Source: a virus (taxonomy: Duplodnaviria; Caudoviricetes). From it: DNA of 64,000 nucleotides. The first letter of the stretch is position 1. Every line of letters begins with the position of its first letter. The notes under the pieces were generated by a model. That model saw nothing but the letters and a program-made list of their open reading frames with translations. It searched no databases and was not told where the DNA came from. Positions 37,642 to 63,875 of this stretch are shown piece after piece. Location of the stretch: the IMG/VR virus record IMGVR_UViG_2706795930_000001, positions 28,581-92,580 of that record; one strand, 5' to 3'. A program made the position numbers and the translations under genes.

Positions 37642-39017
37642 CCCTCACCTTCGAGCGACCACTCAACCCGAACTACGCCGCCACCGTCATCGAGCTCGGC
37701 TCGCCCACCACGCTCGCGAACCTCGACAACCTCGTCGGCTTCCCGGTCTACGGACTCCAGGCGCTGACCACCAAGGATCACTTCGCCGGCGAGCTGATGG
37801 TCGCGTTCACCGCGGAGACGCAGCTTTCCGAGGAGTTCGCCCGGGAGAACAACCTCTTCCGCAAGACCGAGCTCAACGCCGACCCCGAAGCCGACCGAGG
37901 CTACCTCGAAGAGAACCGACGGGTTCGAGCCATTCGCCTCCGTGGGGAGAAAAGCAGCGCTCTACTGTTGCCTGTCTCGTGCCTCACATACGCCGGTGTG
38001 GACCCATCCGATCTCGAGTCGGGCATGACGTTCGACCAGGTCAACGGTCACGAGATCTGCCGCAAGTACGTCGTTCCGGTCAAGGGCGGCAACGCGAATC
38101 GCGCCGCCAAGCAGGCCGAGAAGGTGTTCCGCCAGGTCGACGAGCGAGTCTTCCCGCGGCATGTCGAGACCGCCAACTTCTGGCGCTCACTCAACGAGCT
38201 GAAGCACTACGCCAGCGAGCTCATCATCACCCAGAAGCTCCACGGGACCAGCGTCCGCGCCGGCAACGTCCCCGTGCTCAACCCGCCGATCGAGCCGCGC
38301 TTCAACGGTCTGCGGCGCTCGCTGGGCCTCAAGCCGAAGCCCGCGGTCCCGGCGACCACCGTGTGGGCCGAGGACACCCGGTTCACCGTGGGCTCCAAGC
38401 GAGTCATCAAGGACGAGAACGCCACCCAGGGCTTCTACGGCGACGTCGACGTCTTCACCGTTGTCGCCGAGGAGCTGCTCGCCGGCAAGATCCCCGAGAA
38501 CTACATGGTCTACGGCGAGATCATCGGCTGGGTTCCCGGCACCGACAAGCCGATTCAGAAGGGCTACACCTACGGGCTCCCCGAAGGCCGAGCCGATCTG
38601 TACATCTACCGCGTCGCCACCATCAACCGCACCGGCCAGATCGCCGACCTCCCCTGGGATGCGGTCAAGACCTTCTGCCGTGAGCGCGGGCTGAAGTGGA
38701 CGCCCGAGCTGTTCCGCATTCCCGCCCGAATCCTGCAGGAGCGGGAGGACCGAGAGATTCTCGTGTTCAACATCGAGGACATCCTCGACCACCGCTTCGA
38801 GGATGCCTACCTCAGGGACGGTCTCGACTGGGCCGACAAGCCCGTGCCGCTCTCCGACCCGAAGTCGGTCGACGAGGGCGTGTGCATCCGCCAGGACTAC
38901 GGCGTCGTGCCGACCATCCTCAAGGCGAAGAGCCCGCTGTTCTTCGAGTACGAGACCAAGCAGGCCGACAAGGGCGAGATCGACATCGAGACCCTGGAAT
39001 CCGAGGCCGCAGCGTGA
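37638..39017 (+). CDS. RNA ligase (Rnl2/DRB0094-like with N-terminal OB domain)
   Basis: TQKLHGTS (motif I), VYGEIIG, EGVCIR, LKAKS; N-terminal RVRAIRLRGEKSSALL. Confidence 0.88.
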   Translation: MTLTFERPLNPNYAATVIELGSPTTLANLDNLVGFPVYGLQALTTKDHFAGELMVAFTAETQLSEEFARENNLFRKTELNADPEADRGYLEENRRVRAIRLRGEKSSALLLPVSCLTYAGVDPSDLESGMTFDQVNGHEICRKYVVPVKGGNANRAAKQAEKVFRQVDERVFPRHVETANFWRSLNELKHYASELIITQKLHGTSVRAGNVPVLNPPIEPRFNGLRRSLGLKPKPAVPATTVWAEDTRFTVGSKRVIKDENATQGFYGDVDVFTVVAEELLAGKIPENYMVYGEIIGWVPGTDKPIQKGYTYGLPEGRADLYIYRVATINRTGQIADLPWDAVKTFCRERGLKWTPELFRIPARILQEREDREILVFNIEDILDHRFEDAYLRDGLDWADKPVPLSDPKSVDEGVCIRQDYGVVPTILKAKSPLFFEYETKQADKGEIDIETLESEAAA

Positions 39018-49500: not shown

Positions 49501-49541
49501 TGTTGCCTGTCTCGAATAGGCTCAGCTTGAGACAGGCAACG
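49501..49541. promoter_or_regulatory. inverted pair of 14-bp operators upstream of lysin B
   Basis: TGTTGCCTGTCTCG 49501-49514 and TGAGACAGGCAACG 49528-49541. Confidence 0.75.
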
Positions 49542-54600: not shown

Positions 54601-55122
54601 TTCTCCTGTCCGGCCGGTGTCAGGACCGACCATTCTTCGATTTCGGACCCGGTGACCTCGCCGGTGACGGTCTCGCCTTCGAGGCCCGAGAAGTCGTGCT
54701 CGAAACGAAGCCCGTCGAGGAACTCCTCCTGCACATCGGCATCCCAGGTGGCGAAGTCGGCCGGCACTTCCAGCTCGGCCTCGTATCGCGTCGAGAGGAC
54801 CTCATCCTCGACCCACTGCAGACGGACCTTCATGTCAGTTCTCCTTGCATCCGAGTTCGGCGCACATGGGCGACCGGTAGGTGTTCTTTTTGCGGTGTGC
54901 GGCAACATGTCCGGCGAGTGCCAGCTCGTCGAAGAGGGTCTCGAAGTTGCCCCTGTTCAGCAGCATCTCGATCAGCTCTTCGATCACCGCGGTCGTGTCG
55001 GCACGTCGGTCATGACGCTCGCGGATGAGCTCGGTGTGGTCCCGCAACTCCAGGATCTCGTCGGCGAAGATCGCCAGCGTCTCGGCGGGATTCCAGTTCG
55101 CCAGCTCGTCGATGTGCGTCAC
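51659..55122 (-). CDS. run of small coupled hypothetical genes (51659-52057, 52050-52259, 52256-52573, 52570-52857, 52857-53006, 53008-53202, 53202-53501, 53503-54153, 54155-54595, 54597-54833, 54835-55122)
   Basis: Overlaps or TGAC-ATG junctions with GGAGAACTGAC-like SD; mostly acidic. Confidence 0.65.
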
Positions 55123-55895
55123 GCCGCACCCGCCTCGGCCGCAGCCTTGCGGGCTTCCATCGCCGCGAGGAGAGTGCGCTCAGTGAAGCGTGCAACCTCG
55201 TCCGGATCGGCACCGGCCGCGATCGCAGCAGCGGCACCCTCCTCTGTGAGCGTCACCTGGCACATGTCCATCTCGACGGCGTCGGTCGTCATCTGCTCCC
55301 AGATCGCGTGCTCGTACTCCAGGTCTCCTGGGAAGACCTCGCGGGACAGGTACTCGCGGATCGCCCGTGCCATGTACCAGGTCTCGTCATCGGCGGTCCG
55401 GATGAAGCCCGAGATTCCGCGACCATCCTCGATCGTGATCTCGTTGTCGTCGAGCCACCGATTCAGGGCGTCGGCGTCGATCGTCCATCGCGCCATATAG
55501 CCGTCGGTCGTGAAGTTGTACTCCCGCGGGGACCAGGTCTCGCCGGTCCACTCGACGTCCAGGATCACGGGGTCAGTCGACTTCCAGATCGGAGCCTTGT
55601 CGCCATTCCGGATCAGCTCGTGGGGGAGGGCCTGCTGGATCGCATAGATCGACGCCTCGGCCAGCCACTCGATGAATGACTGCATGTCCCAGTCGATGTC
55701 GAAGTACTCCCACCAGGTGACATCTTCGATCGCGGCGAAGTCGACGCCCAGCCACTCTGCGATGTGGTCCTGCTCGCCCTCGATGTGGTTGTCCGAACCG
55801 AGATCGAAGACCGAGTAGGTGTCGATGTGGTTGACGTGGGTCATCGTCGAGCCGAAGTCCTCGACCACAACGCCGGTCTGAAGTACCTGTCCCAT
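55119..55895 (-). CDS. acidic hypothetical protein
   Basis: SPREYNFTTD motif; GAAAGG SD. Confidence 0.7.
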   Translation of the reverse strand: MGQVLQTGVVVEDFGSTMTHVNHIDTYSVFDLGSDNHIEGEQDHIAEWLGVDFAAIEDVTWWEYFDIDWDMQSFIEWLAEASIYAIQQALPHELIRNGDKAPIWKSTDPVILDVEWTGETWSPREYNFTTDGYMARWTIDADALNRWLDDNEITIEDGRGISGFIRTADDETWYMARAIREYLSREVFPGDLEYEHAIWEQMTTDAVEMDMCQVTLTEEGAAAAIAAGADPDEVARFTERTLLAAMEARKAAAEAGAA

Positions 55896-55972
55896 GGTTG
55901 CCTTTCCGTTGCGCGACCTTCGCGAACAACAAAGGCGCCGAACGGTGCTCGGCGCCAATGCAATTCGTGTGG

Positions 55973-58900
55973 TCAGAGATTGTCGAGCTCGTCGACTCCG
56001 GGCAGGGGATTCTCGTCATCGAGCCGGGACTGGTTCACAACCCACTCGCCATAGCCCAGGCGCGTCTCGTCATTCCAGACCTCACGACGCCAGTCCTCGA
56101 TCGGGTAGTCCGGATGCTCGATCCAGTTGTTCCAGCCGCCAGCCGGTTTCGTCATCAGAACATCCCCCGGATCTCGGCCTCGTACGGCCTGAAGTTGTTG
56201 ACGGCGCCCCAGTCGATGCCGGCTAGATCCGCCAGGTGCCTGAGGTTATTGAGCAGGTCGCCCATCGCGGTGGCGACCGACTCGTAGGGGTAGACGCCGG
56301 TGTGCTCCCCGAACGCTCGCAATCCGATGAGGCCGAACGCCGCCCGGGTCATGTTGTCCTCGGCGCACCGCCCGAAGTCACCCCAGATGCATTCCGTGTC
56401 GCGCTCGGCGTAGCCGTTGAGCGCACGTTCGACCTCATCGAACGACGCGCCGTCATCATCGGCGTCGTCGAGCTGCGCGGCGATCGAGTTGAGCTTGGAC
56501 GGTGTTTCGTGGTGGGACATTTCATTACCTCCAGGGTGAGTAATCGAGTGACAGCACGAGACAGGCAACGGTCGCACCGCAGACCAGCTTCACGTGAGTC
56601 ATGAACGGGGACTGCATGAAAGGGGAGTGCAGGAACATCTGCCAGCGGATCACCATGCGAGGGGCGCCGTGATCGGAGCGTCGCAGTCCTCGCAACCCTC
56701 GGGCGTGAGTTCCATGTCGCGACAGACCGGGCAGACCTCGCCGATGTCGGCATTGGGGTCATCAGGGTACCGGACGCACAGGGTCGCGAACGCCTCCTCC
56801 TCGGACCAGAAGTCGCCCGCTATCATCCCCTCGTCATTGAAGATGCCGTACTCGGTGGATGCCATCAGTTCCCGCCCTCCGTCCGAGGCGTGATGGTCAG
56901 CGAGTTGACGAAGAACCCGAGGGCCTCGATGGCTTCCCAGATCTCGTCGGCGTGATCCTCGGCCGTGTTTGGGGCCGAGGTGATGATCTCGATGTCCATG
57001 TCAGATCTCCCTGGAGTCGATGGTCGTGATGTCGTCGATGTGAGTCCCCGGCGCGAACCGCAGGCACAGCGCCTCCTGGGCCCGCTGTGCCGCCATCGAG
57101 CACGCGCCCTCGTAGTCGTCGTCGGGGTAGTAGCCCTCGACGGTCAGCTCGACCTGGAGGGTCACCGTGTGCCGGAGCTCGACCTCGGTGGTCTCATCGT
57201 CGATGTCGTTGTCGTGCATGGCTTTCTCCTAGAAGTTCTTCGCACCGCACAGGTCGCACGACCCGTCGGTGATCTGGTGTAGGCCGCCGGTCCGCAGATC
57301 GGGGCAGGGGGTTTCGATGCCGGGGAGGTAGAAGCGCTCCCACATGTGGATCAGCGTGCCGACGTTGTCGCCGTCGTACGCCTCGTACGCCTCCACGAAG
57401 TCGTTGAGCGTGGCCATGTCAGAAGTCGTAGTGCGCGGAGATCGCGCAGAAGAGGGGAATTTCGTCGTCGTCCTGCGCGGTGTAGCCGAGCGCGTCGTCG
57501 AATAGGCGCAACTCGCGGATGAACGGTTCGTTGCGCGGGTCCGATGACCTGCGCCCGAAGAACACTCGCGGGCCGAAGAAGGTCTCCGGATCGACGACAG
57601 CCAGTTCCTGGATCATGGTCAGTACCCCTCCGGCGTGAGCACTTCGAGGTCGAAGCCGTCGGCGGAACCCTCGGGCATGTCGGACACCTCGATACCCTCG
57701 CGGGTCAGACCGTCGAAACCGCTGTCCTCCAGCTCGGCGAGCCCGTTGGCGAAGTCGTAGTCATCAGGGTTGTCAGCGACCTCTTCGGGCACGAGGATCA
57801 TGCGCGAGTGCTGCGAGACCTCAGTCCAGGTGACGCACACGGCGCGCATCAGACAGCCGCCTTGCGAATCTGGGCGATGCGGACCGGCAGAACCTGGCCG
57901 TCGCCGTACTTCGCGATCCGGGCCTGCCTGCGCCGGATGGTCTCTGCTCGTGCCTCTTCGCGGGTGCGTCGTGCCATGATGACTTCCTCCTAGCTATAGG
58001 TTTGCGACCGTCGCAAACAACAAGACCCCCGACACCTGTTCGGGGGTCATGCAATTCGTGCGGTCAGGCTTCGGTTGTGACGACCAGATCCTCGGCGCGG
58101 TTCAGGTAGGTCGGATACCAGTCGACCACGATCTCGCCGTTCAGGTCGATGTGGACAACGCGCCCCCGGTGCCAACCGTGAGCTTCCTCGACCTCATCGC
58201 CGACTCGGATGTCGTGGGGCATCATGCGAGACCCGCCATCTCCAGCACGTCATTCCAGCCAGCCTGGTCGATGTCGAAGTAGGTCATCAGCCCGACCGCG
58301 TCATGACAGCTCGCGAAGATCAGGCGACCGTCGTCGAGCTTGTACAGGTAGTACTCCATCTCCAGCTCGGGGCTGTAGGCGTACTCGTCGTACTCGGCAT
58401 CTTCGATCTCAGCCGGGGTGCGGATGCCTCGTCGGGAGATCATGCTGCCTTCGCCTCTCGAATCTGCGCCGAGACCTGCTCGATCGCCCACTTGAGCTCG
58501 CTCACAACCTCGCTGATCACGTACTCGTCGCCGACAAAGCCCCACACCGATGAGTCGATGACGTCGCCAAGCGGGCTCTCCAGGGTGATGACGTAGCCAT
58601 AGACCTCGCCGTCCCAGTACTTCTCCATTTCGTCGGCGACGCCGTTCTCCTCGACCCCGGCCGGCATCACCGAGATGACAGGCAGCCAGTCACTCGGCCC
58701 CTCGCCACTGAACGTGCGGAACTCGACGTTGAGACCCAGCAGCTCGCCGTACCGGGTCAGCACCCTGTGGACGTAGTCGCGGTCGATGCAGTACTCCCTG
58801 TGGTCGGGGTAGATGCGCTCCACCGCCCGCTGAAACGCGGCCAGAGACTCGTTGTGCTCGTCGTACAGGTCGGTGCAGGTGTAGTTCGCCGACTGCGACC

Positions 58901-59640
58901 CCGGCTCGATGAACAGGGCAACCGCGCAGCTCTCCATGTCGCCGCAGATGTCCTGCCAGGTGTGATCGGTGTCGCGGATGACCTCGACCCGCCCGATGTC
59001 ACCCGACCCGAACATGCCCGACAGGCGATTGACGTCGACCCCGGTCAGGGTTGACAAGGTCTCGGGCGTGAGGTCGAGAACGTAACCCTCGCCGGTGAAG
59101 TCGAACTCGTACAGATGCATGATTCCTCCTATGTCGCGACCATCGCAGACAACAAAGGGCACGAGACTTGCTCGTGCCCAATGCAATCGGTGTGGTCGAT
59201 CAGCCGCGCACCATCGCGACCTTGCGCATGTTCACCGGCTTCCGAAGACTCACCTTCGGTCGCTTGATCAGACTCACTGCCATGTCACTCACCACCTTCC
59301 AGCTCGTCGATGCGATCGTTGACGTCCTGGAGATCCCAGGACAGCTGTTCGTGATTGCCGCTGCCCACGACTGCCCGTGACGCTCGGCGCTCCAGTTCCT
59401 CGCGCCACTCTCGCGCCTCGGCCAGGGTCATGTCGGCGACGTACATCAGATGCCCCCTCTCGCCTTGCCTAGTTCGCGTTTTAGCTGCTCTTTCATCCAC
59501 TGCCAGTGCCAGTCTCCGTAGCAGTCCCCGCTCTGGAAGTCCTCAAGGGCCGCCAAGGTTCCCACTCCCTCGTTTGTCCATATGTCGAGGAATGCGGCTA
59601 GGCCCTTATCCTTAAGCGATACCGCTTGGTCCTTGTGCAT
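55973..59640 (-). CDS. run of small hypothetical genes (55973-56155, 56155-56520, 56650-56865, 56865-56999, 57001-57219, 57229-57417, 57419-57616, 57619-57849, 57849-57977, 58064-58225, 58222-58443, 58440-59120, 59200-59283, 59285-59446, 59446-59640)
   Basis: Coupled starts/stops and SD sites checked by reading. Confidence 0.6.
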
Positions 59641-59641
59641 G

Positions 59642-60184
59642 TCAGTCGACGATCTCGTAGATGCGGCCGCCGTACTCGACGAAGTTGCCCTCGATGTCGA
59701 GGTCCCGGGCGAACGATTCGTAATCGAAGTACGTCTCGATGGTCTGCCTCACTGCCTCGTGGATCTCGGGCAGGATGAACTCGGATACGTGCTCACCGGC
59801 GACCTCTTCCATCGTGCTGCAACCGGTGTCGATGACGTCAGCCTCGGCGAAGCTGTCGGCGTAGTGCTCGCCGTGATGCTTGACGTAGGCGAAGTACAGG
59901 TCGGGCTCACCGCCCATCCGCTCGACGTGCGCCAAGACCTCCGAGATCGGGTCGTACTCGCCGATCTTGATCGGCCCAAACCCGTCGTAGTCGTGGATCG
60001 CGAACTCCTCGTGCGGCCCCGACCATTCGTTGACCTTGCGCAGTAGCTCATCGCCGCGAGCAAGGATCTCCTTGATCTTCGCGTAGACATCCTCGGCGTC
60101 GGTGTCGGCGTCCAGCTCGACCCACTCGCCGACCAGGTGACCCGCGTTGTATGCCGCGAGATCGGCAATCCAGATGCTGGGCAT
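59642..60184 (-). CDS. ardA: ArdA-like antirestriction protein
   Basis: IWIADLAAYNAGHLVGEWVEL, EEFAIHDYDGF, YFDYESFARDL; highly acidic. Confidence 0.9.
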   Translation of the reverse strand: MPSIWIADLAAYNAGHLVGEWVELDADTDAEDVYAKIKEILARGDELLRKVNEWSGPHEEFAIHDYDGFGPIKIGEYDPISEVLAHVERMGGEPDLYFAYVKHHGEHYADSFAEADVIDTGCSTMEEVAGEHVSEFILPEIHEAVRQTIETYFDYESFARDLDIEGNFVEYGGRIYEIVD

Positions 60185-60262
60185 TGTTCCTCCAGTTGTG
60201 TTGTGACTCATGCGAACAACGCACACGGCCAGACATGCTGGCCGCGACGCAATCGGCATGGA

Positions 60263-62460
60263 TCAGGGGAGAAGGGCGGAGTACTCCGCATGGTCGATCT
60301 CGGCGAAGATGTACCGGCGCATGATCTCGGCCGCATCGGTCGCCGACATGCCCGCCGGGACATCCTTCCCGTGGCCGAACATGAAATTGCCGATCAGCTT
60401 TGTGGGGATACCGAGATCGCGCACCCGCTGGGCAGCCTCCGGCCCCAGGTCGATCCATAGCTGCACCCGACCCACCGACTCCAGGTGCAGGACGTTGTAG
60501 CGCGTCGAGACGTTGTTGCGATCGAGGGTGAAGTCGGCAACAGGCGTGGGCATGATTCCTCCAGAATCGTTGGGAGAGTCTGCGATTGTTCGCGAGACAA
60601 CACGCGGACCCGTTACCATGAGAGACAGGCAACGGGTCCGATGCAATCAGGCGATCAGGCAGCGATTAGGGCGCGCTTGCGGAGATCGAGAGTCCTCGGC
60701 CGATACCCGCCGAGATGAACCACGCGGCCCGCTCGGCTCGCGATCCACTCGACGATCTCGTCGATGTGGAAGTTCACGTAGGACGAATCGACCATCTCGG
60801 GCCATTCGTCGGTCACGCCGGTCCCGTCGAATGCGACGCTCTCCAGGAGGTCGAGCACACCGTCGGCCAGGTTGAACTCGTCGATGCCGAGAGCGTCGGC
60901 CAGGGCGCTACGGGCATCCCGCCGAGCGTAGATGTCCCAGTGTTCGGCGATCTGTTCCATCTCGACTGTCGAGTACTCGTCGTCATCCAGGACCGGGTAA
61001 GCCTCCAGTGACCGGAGGACATCGACCAGGTCGTGAGGTGCGATCGAGTCGAGGTCGAGGGCGATGTGGTCCGAGCCGGAGTATGGCCCATCAGTCAGAC
61101 CCTCGCAGTCGGACCAGCGATCGGCGAGCACGCGATAGTTGCTGATGTCGATCACGTCCGCATAGCCGTGGACGTCCCGGCCCATCGTGTGGCGGAGGAC
61201 CAGGACCTCGACCTCGTCGACCGTGAAGTCCCGGAATCCGCGATCGTTGGTGAAGTGCTGGTAGCGGCGAGAGATCGCGAGATCGGCGAGATGGTCGACC
61301 GCCGTTGTCCAGCTGTCGCCGTAGGTCTCGACCATGACCTCGCGAACCGTCATCGCCTCGATCAGGACGCACGGATGGTCCCAGTAGTCGAGATCGCGGA
61401 GATCGCAGTACGAACGGATCGCGTCATCTTCGGTCCAGCCCTCGACAGGCGTGCCGCAAACCTTGAACATGATTCCTCCAGGTAGTGGGTTTGGAGAGTC
61501 CGTGTGGACAACACGCGGCCCGATGCGAGATCGGGCCCATGCAATGCACACGAGACAGGCAACAGTCAGGCGTAATCGAACATGAATCGGTATTCGAGTG
61601 TCCCGCTCAGCGGGGTGTCGATCGAGACGAACACCTCGTCGCGGCCATCGAGTACGTCATCCTCGAAGACCTCCACCGAGACAGTCGTCTCCTCGTCGTC
61701 GCGCATCTCCAGGTCGATCAGCATCGCCTCGCGAGTCGTGAGATGCTGCTGTCCCCAGCCCCAGCCAGCCTCGCGGTAGGCGACCCAGATCTCACCGCCG
61801 GTCGGGGCGAGCGATGCACGTAACGCGAAGTCGAGAGTCGAAGCGGCCATGATGGATACCTCCAGGTAGTGAGATGGATTGCCCGTGTGGACAACACGAG
61901 ACCCGCGATGGTGGACCACGGGCCTCATGCAAAGCACACGAGACAGGCAACAGGTCAGAGCGCGATTGTCGCCACCGGCGCGTTCCAGTCGGTGCGAACG
62001 TGCCGCGCCGGGCCCTGCAAGACTCGACCGCGATTGATCTGGTAATGGCGAGTCGCCAGGTGGCGGTAGAAAGCGCGCAGAGCGGGAGTGACATTCGTGC
62101 GAGATGAGTGACGAGCCATTTTTCCTCCAGTTGTGGCGAAGTGATACGAGACAGGCAACGCTGTCAGTATGCGGCAGCGAGAGCCGCCGCGAGAGCCTTA
62201 CGGTTGCGGATCGGTGCCGACGAGAGCACCCGACCGCCCTTTGTGCGAATCGTGACGAGACCAGCGGCGTCGACGCTGCCTTTCCCATGGAAGTCGGCCG
62301 AGATTTCGACAATCCGGCCGCCGTTGGTCTTGACCGTTTTCGAGGCGTGGAATTTCTGGACATCCAGGTGTCCACCTCGGCCGACACTGGTCGCAATGTT
62401 CGCAGACCAGCCCGTTTTCACGGCCCGATCACGTTCGATCTGAATCGCCTGACGTTTCAT
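60263..62460 (-). CDS. five hypothetical genes (60263-60553, 60655-61470, 61566-61850, 61955-62119, 62164-62460)
   Basis: The four genes ending at 60553-62119 have a CTGGAGG SD; 62164-62460 has AAAGGGGA. Confidence 0.65.
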
Positions 62461-62500
62461 AATGGTCCCCTTTGTTCCGAAAGTGACATTGTGCTTGCCA

Positions 62501-62550
62501 CTTTAGAGAGAGCGCCCATTGGAATTGTCACAATGGGCGCCACTCTAAAG
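62501..62550. other. long hairpin upstream of the leftward operon
   Basis: CTTTAGAG..GCGCCCATTG/CAATGGGCGC..CTCTAAAG. Confidence 0.6.
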
Positions 62551-62695
62551 ATTGACATGCGTAGTTGTTACACACTTTCACAGTTTGACCAGCACAAAGC
62601 TGGCAGCGTGTGGCGGATTACGCCGCCCGTCTGAAGTATTTTTTGCCGCTATTCTCCCCACGATAAGCAAGCCTAAATGCGGTCCCGATTAGTCA

Positions 62696-63177: not shown

Positions 63178-63368
63178 CGTTGCGTGTCTCATGCGAGTCA
63201 CGTTAGCCGCTCTAGCGCTAGTGCGCAAGTCGCGGGTTGTGTTGCGTGTCATGGGGTCTCACCTGCCTTTCGGGTTGCTGGTCGGTTGCTGCGGTGACAT
63301 CAGACAACGGCACCGGGCCCAGGACGTCAAGCACGACCCCCGAAATCGGGCCCACGTTGCCTGTCTCG
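63178..63368 (+). promoter_or_regulatory. two 14-bp operator motifs near genome end
   Basis: CGTTGCGTGTCTCA 63178-63191; CGTTGCCTGTCTCG 63355-63368. Confidence 0.65.
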
Positions 63369-63491: not shown

Positions 63492-63875
63492 GTTTCCGCA
63501 GGTCAGGGGCGGTTTTTGCCCTCGCGAGGCTCTGACCTGCACTTATGCCCTGTTCTCGCAGGTCAGACGCGGTTTTCGCACTAAAACCATGCCTGACCTG
63601 GGCAAACGAGGCATCGTCGCAGGTCAGGTACCCTAACGGTGCCTAAGCGGACCGCAACCGCGTCCGGCGAGTGCATCGCCGCAGGTCAGAGCGGGTGCGC
63701 AACCGGACCGCGCAGGTCAGGCGGCCGACGGGCGCCCGCGTGCCCAGTCGGTGCCCTGACCAGCGCAAACGTCGCATCGTCGCAGGTCACGGGCGGTTTT
63801 CGGGCTGCCTTAGGTGAGTGAGGAACACGCGCACGCGAGGGGAGCCGCGTTTCCGCAGGTCAGACGTGGTTTTCG
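63492..63875. repeat. cluster of about 10 (C)GCAGGTCA(G) repeats in both orientations
   Basis: Forward at 63497, 63557, 63618, 63680, 63711, 63781, 63854; reverse or degenerate at 63532, 63593, 63757. Confidence 0.85.

Follow-up and report, generated by a model that had tools for sequence, protein, structure and literature searches.

Long covarying RNA hairpins in the gaps of an early operon of Gordonia phage Bantam and its relatives

Seven intergenic elements of Gordonia phage Bantam are each predicted to form one interrupted hairpin of 23–29 bp (about 26 bp) in the sense-strand RNA, and the explanation that fits them best, to which we give slightly less than an even chance, is that they punctuate one long early transcript as T7-like RNase III processing or insulating sites. 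The window analysed was 64,000 nucleotides of the 92,580-bp (92.6-kb) Bantam genome. A search with the pattern TTGCRT-N16-40-YGTTGT gave seven matches in the window and the same seven in the whole genome, compared with 0.32 expected by chance, and 0 of 100 shuffled sequences reached that number. This search confirmed the coordinates and minus-strand orientation of the seven TTGCRT sites listed in a preliminary description of this DNA, whose core stem sequences were also correct. All seven elements (Table 1) lie on the minus strand in gaps of the right-end leftward operon, each of them intergenic and on the sense strand of the flanking early genes. The family extends to 34 further copies in four relatives, confined to the same operon. 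Across the five phages this makes 41 copies, every one in sense orientation within the right-arm operon, and the rest of those genomes contains none. When the Rfam covariance models were run against 54–64 kb at E ≤ 1, only two chance-level matches were obtained (CRISPR-DR and snoRNA), neither at an element, and our searches of the literature and Rfam found no family or paper describing the Bantam hairpins. Nothing of the kind has yet been reported from phages of actinobacteria, in which the post-transcriptional organisation of early operons is essentially unstudied.

Table 1. Positions in the window of the hairpin elements and associated features, with predicted folds
Feature	Position	Strand	TTGCRT motif	YGTTGT motif	Downstream ATG	Predicted fold	Local hairpin of 3' arm	Remark
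Element 7, long RNA hairpin	61878..61951	-	TTGCAT 61927-61932	TGTTGT 61891-61896	61848-61850	26-30 pairs, -41 kcal/mol	61878-61895	
Element 6, long RNA hairpin	61498..61556	-	TTGCAT 61539-61544	TGTTGT 61508-61513	61468-61470	24 pairs, -35.1 kcal/mol	61498-61509	
Element 5, long RNA hairpin	60587..60657	-	TTGCAT 60641-60646	TGTTGT 60597-60602	60551-60553	28 pairs, -40.1 kcal/mol		operator within upper stem-loop; upstream stop codon 60655-60657 in 5' arm
Element 4, long RNA hairpin	60204..60265	-	TTGCGT 60247-60252	CGTTGT 60216-60221	60182-60184	25 pairs (RNAalifold)		directly upstream of ardA
Element 3, long RNA hairpin	59137..59198	-	TTGCAT 59181-59186	TGTTGT 59149-59154	59118-59120	23 pairs, -33.6 kcal/mol	59132-59151	
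Element 2, long RNA hairpin	58005..58066	-	TTGCAT 58049-58054	TGTTGT 58017-58022	57975-57977	24 pairs, -35.7 kcal/mol	58000-58018	stop codon 58064-58066 in 5' arm
Element 1, long RNA hairpin	55914..55975	-	TTGCAT 55958-55963	TGTTGT 55926-55931	55893-55895	24 pairs, -35.4 kcal/mol		weak SD (GGAAAGG)
ardA, gene served by element 4	59642..60184	-						ArdA PF07275, E = 7e-29, 101.8 bits; phrog_2059 anti-restriction protein
Operator-only gap	62148..62159	-						GTTGCCTGTCTC upstream of second gene; no hairpin element
Second operator-only gap	56558-56569							no hairpin element

The preliminary description had placed a short hairpin between two single-stranded motifs. Instead, these flanks are paired, both to one another and to more distal sequence; because TTGCRT pairs with YGTTGT, a pairing that had been missed, and the stop-codon region pairs with the 10–13 nt that follow YGTTGT, there is one long hairpin per element. 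Its 5' arm starts at the stop codon of the upstream gene, and its 3' arm stops a few nucleotides short of the SD of the next gene. The core is a GC-rich hairpin of −15 to −26 kcal/mol with an upper stem of 8–13 pairs, separated from TTGCRT by a constant spacing of 0–1 nt, and the conserved module sits midway along the helix (medians of 13 bp above it and 13 bp below). The module consists of 5'-UUGCR-3' opposite 3'-GUUGY-5', that is, a U·G wobble, a U×U mismatch, a G·U wobble and two Watson-Crick pairs. The preference for minus-strand RNA suggested earlier is borne out, as the sense RNA is more stable than the antisense RNA in 37 of 37 copies (mean fold energies of −35.8 and −27.8 kcal/mol, respectively). 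GGAGG serves as the SD in six of the seven elements, as noted before, and the context of the SD is alike among copies (CTGGAGGAATCATG). Folding energy is a weak criterion, however, since 888 windows of 76 nt give minimum-free-energy hairpins of 21 or more pairs in this genome of 65% GC, and the case for the hairpin therefore rests on covariation.

Covariation was present in the upper, middle and lower helices, with consensus structures of 20–25 pairs. Within the module, position R5:Y1' was paired in 37 of 37 copies (26 A-U and 11 G-C), and the switch between these two pairs was seen within two orthologous groups; the Mollymur copy of element 5, for example, has G-C in place of A-U. Copies found by model alone add C-G at R5:Y1', U-A for C4-G2' (once) and G-C for G3·U3'. 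The U1·G5' wobble and the U2×U4' mismatch were constant throughout, and six positions (U1, U2, G3, U4', G5' and U6') were invariant in 41 of 41 copies while the adjoining pairs covary. In the lower stem, a6:b5 was paired in all 37 copies with four pair types. A permutation test of the lower stem over 18 non-redundant groups showed that 70 of 90 cells pair, compared with 51.3 ± 3.1 after permutation, and none of 5000 permutations reached 70. RNAalifold, applied per class, gave 24–25, 24 and 20 pairs with compensatory changes in the lower stem. Eight of the 25 pairs of element 4 are changed on both sides, including CG/UA and AU/CG/GU in the lower stem; the upper stem of element 5 carries double compensatory changes among orthologues, and that of element 1 carries two independent ones. 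Among five orthologues of element 3, the loop is variable and the stem constant. The covariation check proposed in the preliminary description thus found compensatory pairing in the module, the upper stem and the lower stem alike, and its core claim, that these are strand-specific RNA structures under selection, is upheld.

The second hairpin described earlier does exist as a local fold of the 3' arm, but it is not a separate unit; rather, it is an alternative fold of that arm of the long hairpin. When folded alone, the 3' arm was more stable than its shuffles (mean z = −2.2) and the 5' arm was not (mean z = 0.07), so the 3' arm can, according to the folding model, refold into this smaller hairpin and would then be bistable. 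In most elements, the SD lies outside both folds.

RNase III-type punctuation is textbook for T7, and the comparison with Bantam is close in several respects. Both phages carry their hairpins between the genes of a single early polycistronic unit, presumed in the case of Bantam, whose first genes have anti-restriction functions; T7 has five (R0.3, R0.5, R1, R1.1 and R1.3) in about 7 kb, and Bantam has seven in 6.1 kb. One site is directly upstream of an anti-restriction gene, which is 0.3/ocr in T7 and ardA in Bantam. The hairpins of both are about 20–28 bp with a conserved central motif or irregularity, and a U-rich stretch after the hairpin mimics a terminator. The five T7 early gaps, folded in the same way and compared by way of the T7 cleavage positions, also showed a conserved central motif between variable upper and lower stems. 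On the other hand, there is no sequence similarity between the two sets, and the central irregularity is a symmetric U×U between two wobbles in Bantam but an asymmetric internal loop in T7. Furthermore, the host of Bantam is an actinobacterium, and RNase III cleavage is putative here; in addition, Bantam is temperate, and three of its elements overlap repressor-type operator sequences. We found no report of RNase III-type punctuation in phages of Mycobacteriales. In a phage of a Gram-positive host, Bacillus phage SP82, early-mRNA processing sites are reported to be cut by Bs-RNase III (Panganiban and Whiteley, 1983). These sites, likewise conserved stem-loops in early transcripts acted on by host RNase III, are taken here as a lead only.

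The geometry agrees with this reading. For the E. coli enzyme, the idealised substrate has 22 bp (PMC3867540), and where the target site contains mismatches, RNase III is directed to cut a single strand, leaving stabilising 3' hairpins (PMC3867540). With 23–29 predicted pairs, the Bantam hairpins have the two turns or so (about 20–22 bp or more) of an RNase III signal. RNase III targets lie about one turn from each helix end and are often marked by an internal loop, bulge or mismatch; in Bantam, the invariant module, with medians of 13 bp to the loop side and 13 bp to the base, would be the candidate site of the cut. RNase III is present in Corynebacterium, which belongs to the order of the host; the Bantam genome itself encodes neither RNase III nor a dsRBD. 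A scan of 54–64 kb for sigma-70-like promoters found none, and the downstream genes would therefore depend on read-through. Together with the hairpin geometry and with pairing that continues past the supposed U-tract, this lack of internal promoters is what makes T7-like RNase III signals the best fit. Of the roles offered in the preliminary description, T7-like processing or stabilising sites fit best, conditional terminators are weakened and attC-like sites find no support.

We suggest that an early transcript would be read leftwards from the right end of Bantam, presumably as a single RNA from one promoter, and that a double-strand-specific endoribonuclease, most simply host RNase III, would bind the two-turn helix and cut at or beside the irregular central module. 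Such cutting would divide the polycistronic message into separate units. Once released, the 3' arm could refold as the small local hairpin (HP2), close to the new 5' end (a few nucleotides away), where it would shield the downstream message, and every unit would receive the same short leader and strong SD. Alternatively, a cut in a single strand, as at T7 R1.1, would leave the whole hairpin as a 3' stabiliser on the upstream message. The net outcome would be context-independent expression of small, often exchanged early genes such as ardA.

If this is correct, the elements would explain how mosaic early and anti-defence genes are expressed autonomously after exchange, would show which sequence an actinobacterial dsRNA nuclease prefers or else bring to light a new RNA-binding factor, and would serve as natural insulators when synthetic operons are built for Gordonia, Mycobacterium and their relatives. 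They would also carry a warning for annotation, namely that hairpin-plus-U-rich motifs in these phages need not be terminators. As a compact RNA family (41 copies) that covaries strongly, they offer a precise and testable core in the six invariant nucleotides around the U×U mismatch, and the two-state 3' arm suggests a route to a protected 5' end of the downstream message.

The elements might instead be leaky intrinsic terminators or attenuators, in which the GC-rich upper stem and a U-rich tail would stop some polymerases after each gene block; expression would then be graded along the operon, or distal genes would depend on a phage antiterminator, and in the lysogen the elements and operators together would silence leaky transcription. 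The resemblance is real for elements 1–3, which are terminator-like in a simple scan (a stem followed by UUUGUUGU), and upper stems of 8–13 pairs with −15 to −26 kcal/mol would suit such a role; a small Arg/His-rich protein encoded upstream of the first element could, in our own reading, be an N-like factor. However, the tails of elements 4–7 are interrupted by G/C (GCGUGUUGUCC-type) and were not called, which leaves a U-rich tail, expected within 0–2 nt of the hairpin of an intrinsic terminator, in three of seven, and one conserved module common to all elements leads one to expect one function. The scan as a whole gave 6 sites against 4.8 expected, which is no enrichment, and the T7 RNase III sites likewise resemble a hairpin followed by UUUAU. 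Moreover, the 5' arm pairs with the tail, the module is conserved on both sides, and the covariation (b1–b12 after YGTTGT) runs 5–12 nt past the tail into sequence that terminated RNA would lack. Since covariation continues beyond the would-be release point, the RNA under selection is the read-through RNA. Seven terminators in series without internal promoters would also starve about 30 downstream genes. We consider termination unlikely, and the conditional terminators of the preliminary description lose ground accordingly.

The invariance of the module exceeds what E. coli RNase III requires and could be the mark of a dedicated binding protein instead. According to this alternative, which we regard as quite unlikely, a phage or host protein would bind the U·G / U×U / G·U module in the helix with no cleavage and would regulate translation, stability or antitermination per block, perhaps by favouring either the long hairpin or the local one that the 3' arm can form. 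The six positions that do not vary while their neighbours covary indicate sequence-specific recognition, the bistable 3' arm would provide the two states, and there are uncharacterised early proteins with no Pfam matches. Yet none of the ten early proteins tested gave an RNA-binding domain, the genome encodes no dsRBD, and a direct translational switch is not evident, given that the SD of most elements is outside either fold.

A broader version has a similarly low probability: the elements would be the cis parts of an undescribed phage control system, in which the module is read by an early phage protein, or by some host factor that is not RNase III, and units are toggled between the long and the 3'-arm hairpins, thereby setting processing, read-through or translation of all blocks. 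In three units the sequence would double as a DNA repressor operator, coupling lysogenic repression to control at the RNA level. The operator (12–14 bp) is placed as described earlier: elements 6 and 7 each have it immediately upstream, and element 5 has it within the stem-loop. The lower stem of element 7 uses operator sequence at 61940–61951, and that of element 6 (CUCGUGUG/CACACGG) overlaps the 3' part of the operator at 61552–61563. At the operator-only gap upstream of the second gene, the model of the hairpin family (R1) gave no match.

Cleavage by RNase E at UUG|CRU, leaving a GC hairpin 3–4 nt from the new 5' end as a stabiliser, appears very improbable. Mycobacterial RNase E prefers RR|CNU, in which a purine precedes the cut, C follows it and position +3 is U (PMC10641625); the element motif matches this preference, the one base of TTGCRT that varies corresponds to N, and the spacing to the upper stem is constant at 0–1 nt. 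However, RNase E needs single-stranded RNA, while covariation places the C and the R, as well as the G before them, in base pairs, and such a cut would leave the upstream message with no 3' hairpin.

At the level of DNA, the elements were considered as recombination sites, either attC-like folded single strands cut by a recombinase or homologous linkers for cassette shuffling. Like integron attC sites, they form imperfect, strand-specific hairpins, conserved at the base and variable in the centre, after the stop codons of promoterless genes; the same element type is found upstream of different genes in different phages, RecE/RecT-like proteins are encoded (by the DatBoi annotation), and four breakpoints of homology between Bantam and SpeedDemon are at the edges of elements 6, 5, 3 and 1. 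These breakpoints, however, are at start or stop codons and not within the module, and element-free gene boundaries break equally often, accounting for most of the DatBoi breakpoints and 10 of the 14 for SpeedDemon. A cassette boundary at G|TT was rejected, as homology with SpeedDemon takes in entire elements, either stopping at the ATG that follows or setting in at the stop codon that precedes. The complementary attC core boxes RYYYAAC/GTTRRRY (R''/R') are absent: the 5' motif TTGCRT lacks AAC, and it pairs with the 3' motif YGTTGTY through wobbles and a mismatch. A search for IntI with TIGR02249 gave a best score of 20.5 bits against a cut-off of 265 bits, on an ordinary phage integrase about 40 kb away that is the sole tyrosine recombinase. 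In addition, variable stems lower rather than raise the homology between copies, and the conserved G·U and U×U positions argue for RNA. The attC-like cassettes proposed earlier, which would need core boxes, IntI and boundaries inside the element, and recombination sites in general are therefore extremely unlikely.

Among repeats of actinobacteriophages, the SAS/ESAS sequences of Cluster K mycobacteriophages (PMC3203893) are similar in being confined to non-structural genes and in lying just upstream of starts, with the RBS included, as inverted repeats round a variable spacer whose function is unassigned (PMC3203893). Their authors found little support for an ESAS hairpin in mRNA, departures from pairing being uncompensated (PMC3203893). 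ESAS conserves its two 17-bp arms (PMC3203893), whereas only the 6-position central module is conserved in Bantam and compensation is pervasive. An assignment to this repeat type, with its 13-bp RBS sequence and uncompensated 17-bp repeats, was rejected, as the variable and compensated arms of the Bantam hairpins show the opposite pattern.

The pattern TTGCRT-N16-40-YGTTGT matched seven times in the window, and these are also the only matches in the whole 92,580-bp genome of Gordonia phage Bantam (0.32 expected). All seven (elements 1–7, the intergenic hairpins of the early operon) lie on the minus strand, and in every case the gap opens at a stop codon and closes at a strong SD followed by ATG. 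Folding energies of the cores are −15 to −26 kcal/mol, and an operator-like 12-bp motif directly precedes elements 6 and 7 and lies within the loop region of element 5. The preliminary description, made from the sequence alone, was accurate as far as it went. It had, however, drawn TTGCRT and YGTTGT as separate flanks around a hairpin. The motifs and the hairpins stand, but the flanks are not unpaired: folding of the whole gaps and motif-anchored counts showed that they pair with each other, giving one long hairpin.

The fifth base of TTGCRT and the first base of YGTTGT (R5:Y1′) are paired in 37 of 37 copies, as A-U in 26 and as G-C in 11. The switch between the two occurs within two groups of orthologues: element 5, for which Mollymur has a pair type unlike that of Bantam, DatBoi and SpeedDemon, and the element-3 type, in which one Daredevil copy is likewise switched. 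Four further copies, recovered by the covariance model only, carry informative variants of this module: TTGCCT with GGTTGT (a C-G pair), TTGTGT with CATTGT (U-A in place of C4-G2′) and, in two copies, YGCTGT (G-C in place of the G3·U3′ wobble). The U1·G5′ pair, the U2×U4′ mismatch and A:U6′ are near-constant across copies. Beneath the module, a lower stem forms between the sequence preceding TTGCRT (a-positions) and that following YGTTGT (b-positions). The a6:b5 pair is present in 37 of 37 copies, in the types CG, UA, GC and AU, and among the 90 cells of a2–a6/b1–b5 in 18 non-redundant groups, 70 were paired, as compared with 51.3 ± 3.1 when the 3′ arms were shuffled among groups; none of 5000 permutations reached 70.

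RNAalifold, run separately on three sequence classes, returned one long hairpin for each (25, 24 and 20 pairs), with compensatory changes in the lower stem. All 37 copies fold as a single hairpin of 23–29 pairs, with the conserved module at its centre (medians: 13 pairs above it, 13 below). The sense-strand preference noted earlier was seen in 37 of 37 copies: stability is higher for sense than for antisense RNA because several of the conserved pairs are G·U. A genome-wide scan of minimum free energy was uninformative as a test for long hairpins, since, at 65% GC, the genome has hairpins of at least 21 pairs in 888 of its 76-nt windows; energy therefore proves nothing alone, and the case rests on covariation. 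In a single alignment based on the covariance model (A1/A2, R1), 74% of the upper stem was paired, a value that understates the structure because the register differs among paralogues, and this alignment was replaced by the motif-anchored counts and the per-class RNAalifold runs. We conclude that the elements are a real and strongly supported family of RNA structures.

Copies in relatives, detected by the pattern together with covariance model R1, numbered 8 in DatBoi, 9 in SpeedDemon, 10 in Mollymur and 7 in Daredevil. R1 was run on five complete genomes, and all of its significant matches were sense-strand matches within the right-arm operon, with none elsewhere. A BLAST search with two elements against 50,697 phage records returned the Bantam group only, and pattern scans of IMG/VR returned Daredevil only, plus one non-folding chance match; ArdA relatives in IMG/VR were without elements. 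The 16 scattered single matches to the pattern among 185,579 species genomes of GTDB came from unrelated phyla and were taken as chance. Within the collections searched, the elements thus appear to be private to the Bantam phage group. No Rfam family matched them, no paper describing them was found in the literature, and the hairpin family appears to be without an earlier description. The start-associated and extended sequences of Cluster K are start-proximal repeats of non-structural genes, in which, according to their authors, no compensation speaks for an mRNA hairpin (PMC3203893). The Bantam elements are also start-proximal and in non-structural genes, whereas compensation is their main signal.

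Bantam is a temperate phage of Gordonia terrae (PMC5559632). The elements are located in the right arm of its genome, in an operon that runs leftwards from near the right end. In DatBoi, the closest annotated relative, this arm contains ~39 small leftward genes, almost all hypothetical apart from those for an ArdA-like protein and, towards the far end, a toxin-antitoxin pair. The identity of Bantam ArdA was confirmed (PF07275, E = 7e-29), and nine other early proteins of Bantam that we examined had no Pfam family. The promoter scan found no sigma-70-like promoter inside the operon, against 1.8 expected. Promoter readings of the elements themselves were rejected. For sigma-70, the spacing from TTGCAT to TGTTGT varies from 25 to 38 nt, the scan gave no sites, and element 1 has no TANNNT whatsoever. 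TTGCW resembles a sigma-54 −12 box, for which the −24 GG is missing; RpoN is not known from Actinobacteria, which also counts against this reading. Frpo-like single-strand promoters would need a −10 box, which is absent, and Bantam is a cos phage with a dsDNA genome.

What selection has maintained is a sense-strand RNA helix of two turns whose irregular centre is invariant. Repeated in the gaps of an operon in which no internal sigma-70-like promoter was found, it has by analogy the design of the T7 early RNase III signals. In its idealised form the substrate of E. coli RNase III has 22 bp, a mismatch or loop where the enzyme acts directs it to cut a single strand and leave a stabilising 3′ hairpin, and the 7-kb early precursor of T7 contains five RNase III signals (Nicholson, PMC3867540). 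Folded in the same way, the five T7 gaps showed a central conserved motif, CAAGG...CCUUUAUGAU, with upper (~10 bp) and lower (~9 bp) stems that both vary. Like the Bantam elements, the T7 sites are superficially terminator-like. The T7 cleavage coordinates used in this comparison are consistent with the annotated gaps. The phage genome encodes no RNase III and no dsRBD, and RNase III is present in Corynebacterium, a member of the host's order (control panel). Together with the helix design, these findings favour processing by host RNase III.

The 3′ arm alone forms a local hairpin that begins 0–4 nt into YGUUGU and corresponds to the “second hairpin” of the preliminary description. This arm folds better than shuffled sequences (mean z = −2.2, 18 groups); the 5′ arm by itself is no better than they are (mean z = 0.07). 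Because the 3′ arm folds both locally and with the 5′ arm, it has two partners. We infer that host RNase III would cut at the central module and that, once released, the 3′ arm would form a 5′-proximal hairpin on the downstream message. Among the roles offered previously, T7-like processing is the best explanation, given the helix design and the lack of sigma-70-like promoter sites in the operon, with host RNase III as the putative nuclease and the module as the putative cut site; the elements are most likely, by analogy, the Gordonia-phage equivalent of the punctuation of early mRNA in T7. Elements 6 and 5 also have CUCUCC 15–20 nt upstream of the SD, and it is predicted to pair with GGAGG; this anti-SD hairpin is a possible extra translational control.

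Leaky intrinsic terminators or attenuators are an unlikely reading. Three elements pass a simple terminator scan, whereas four fail it, the would-be tail is itself base-paired, and the covariation runs on 5–12 nt beyond it. Pairing past the tail could not be selected in a terminated RNA, which argues against terminators, including the conditional ones proposed earlier. That a dedicated RNA-binding protein reads the module is plausible, because the six nucleotides that never vary across the 41 copies exceed what E. coli RNase III would require, although no candidate domain turned up in the ten early proteins searched and no dsRBD in the genome. It is very improbable that the elements are RNase E sites with a 5′ stabiliser: UUG↓CRU resembles the mycobacterial preference RR↓CNU (PMC10641625), but its bases are demonstrably paired.

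The proposal of attC-like sites in a gene-cassette array fails, since the elements have no R boxes, IntI is absent (20.5 bits against a cut-off of 265 bits), and breakpoints fall at start and stop codons, not within the element. Nor was an enrichment of mosaic breakpoints at the elements supported: of the 14 breakpoints between Bantam and SpeedDemon, 4 touch the edge of an element, a proportion close to that expected for gene boundaries generally, and in DatBoi most breakpoints lie at boundaries that have no element. SpeedDemon (compared at L009:8098-8170) lacks the 258-aa gene that follows element 1 in Bantam; there the same element and SD lead into the orthologue of the next Bantam gene, with the junction exactly at the ATG. 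Past elements 6 and 3, too, genes are swapped ORF-for-ORF in SpeedDemon.

Window coordinates of the hairpin elements and of other features discussed in the text
Feature	Position	Strand
Hairpin elements 1–7	55896-61954	-
Gene after element 1	55119-55895	-
Part of element 6 with CUCUCC	61471-61500	-
Part of element 5 with CUCUCC	60554-60585	-
GTTGC[C/G/A]TGTCTC, example site	37967-37978	+
GTTGC[C/G/A]TGTCTC, example site	49502-49513	+
GTTGC[C/G/A]TGTCTC, example site	49529-49540	-
GTTGC[C/G/A]TGTCTC, example site	56558-56569	-
GTTGC[C/G/A]TGTCTC, example site	62148-62159	-
GTTGC[C/G/A]TGTCTC, example site	63356-63367	+
Second operon gene	61958-62119	-
Palindrome, CTTTAGAGTGGCGCCCATTG ... CAATGGGCGCTCTCTCTAAAG	62485-62560	-
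Array of CTGACCTGCG copies	63497-63863	mostly -

An asymmetric 12-bp motif, GTTGC[C/G/A]TGTCTC, has 20 sites in the window (0.4 expected), five of them in the early operon. Judged from the DatBoi gene map, the sites are oriented mostly along the local direction of transcription, and they are reminiscent of the “stoperators” of Cluster A. The second operon gene directly precedes the first hairpin element; its 54-aa product, which includes 9 Arg and 5 His, had no match in Pfam or PHROG and is a candidate RNA-binding or N-like factor. A near-perfect large palindrome (28 pairs, −39 kcal/mol), which is outside the hairpin family, occupies an AT-richer stretch directly before the first leftward gene. 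Its left arm overlaps a promoter-like GTAACA-18-TAGAGT, and the site is a candidate early promoter accompanied by an operator or a 5′ stem-loop. The 1.5 kb of non-coding sequence at the right end contains ten copies of CTGACCTGCG within ~370 bp, six exact and four with one mismatch, spaced 25–70 bp apart; these repeats may be a protein-binding array near cos, for the terminase or a regulator.
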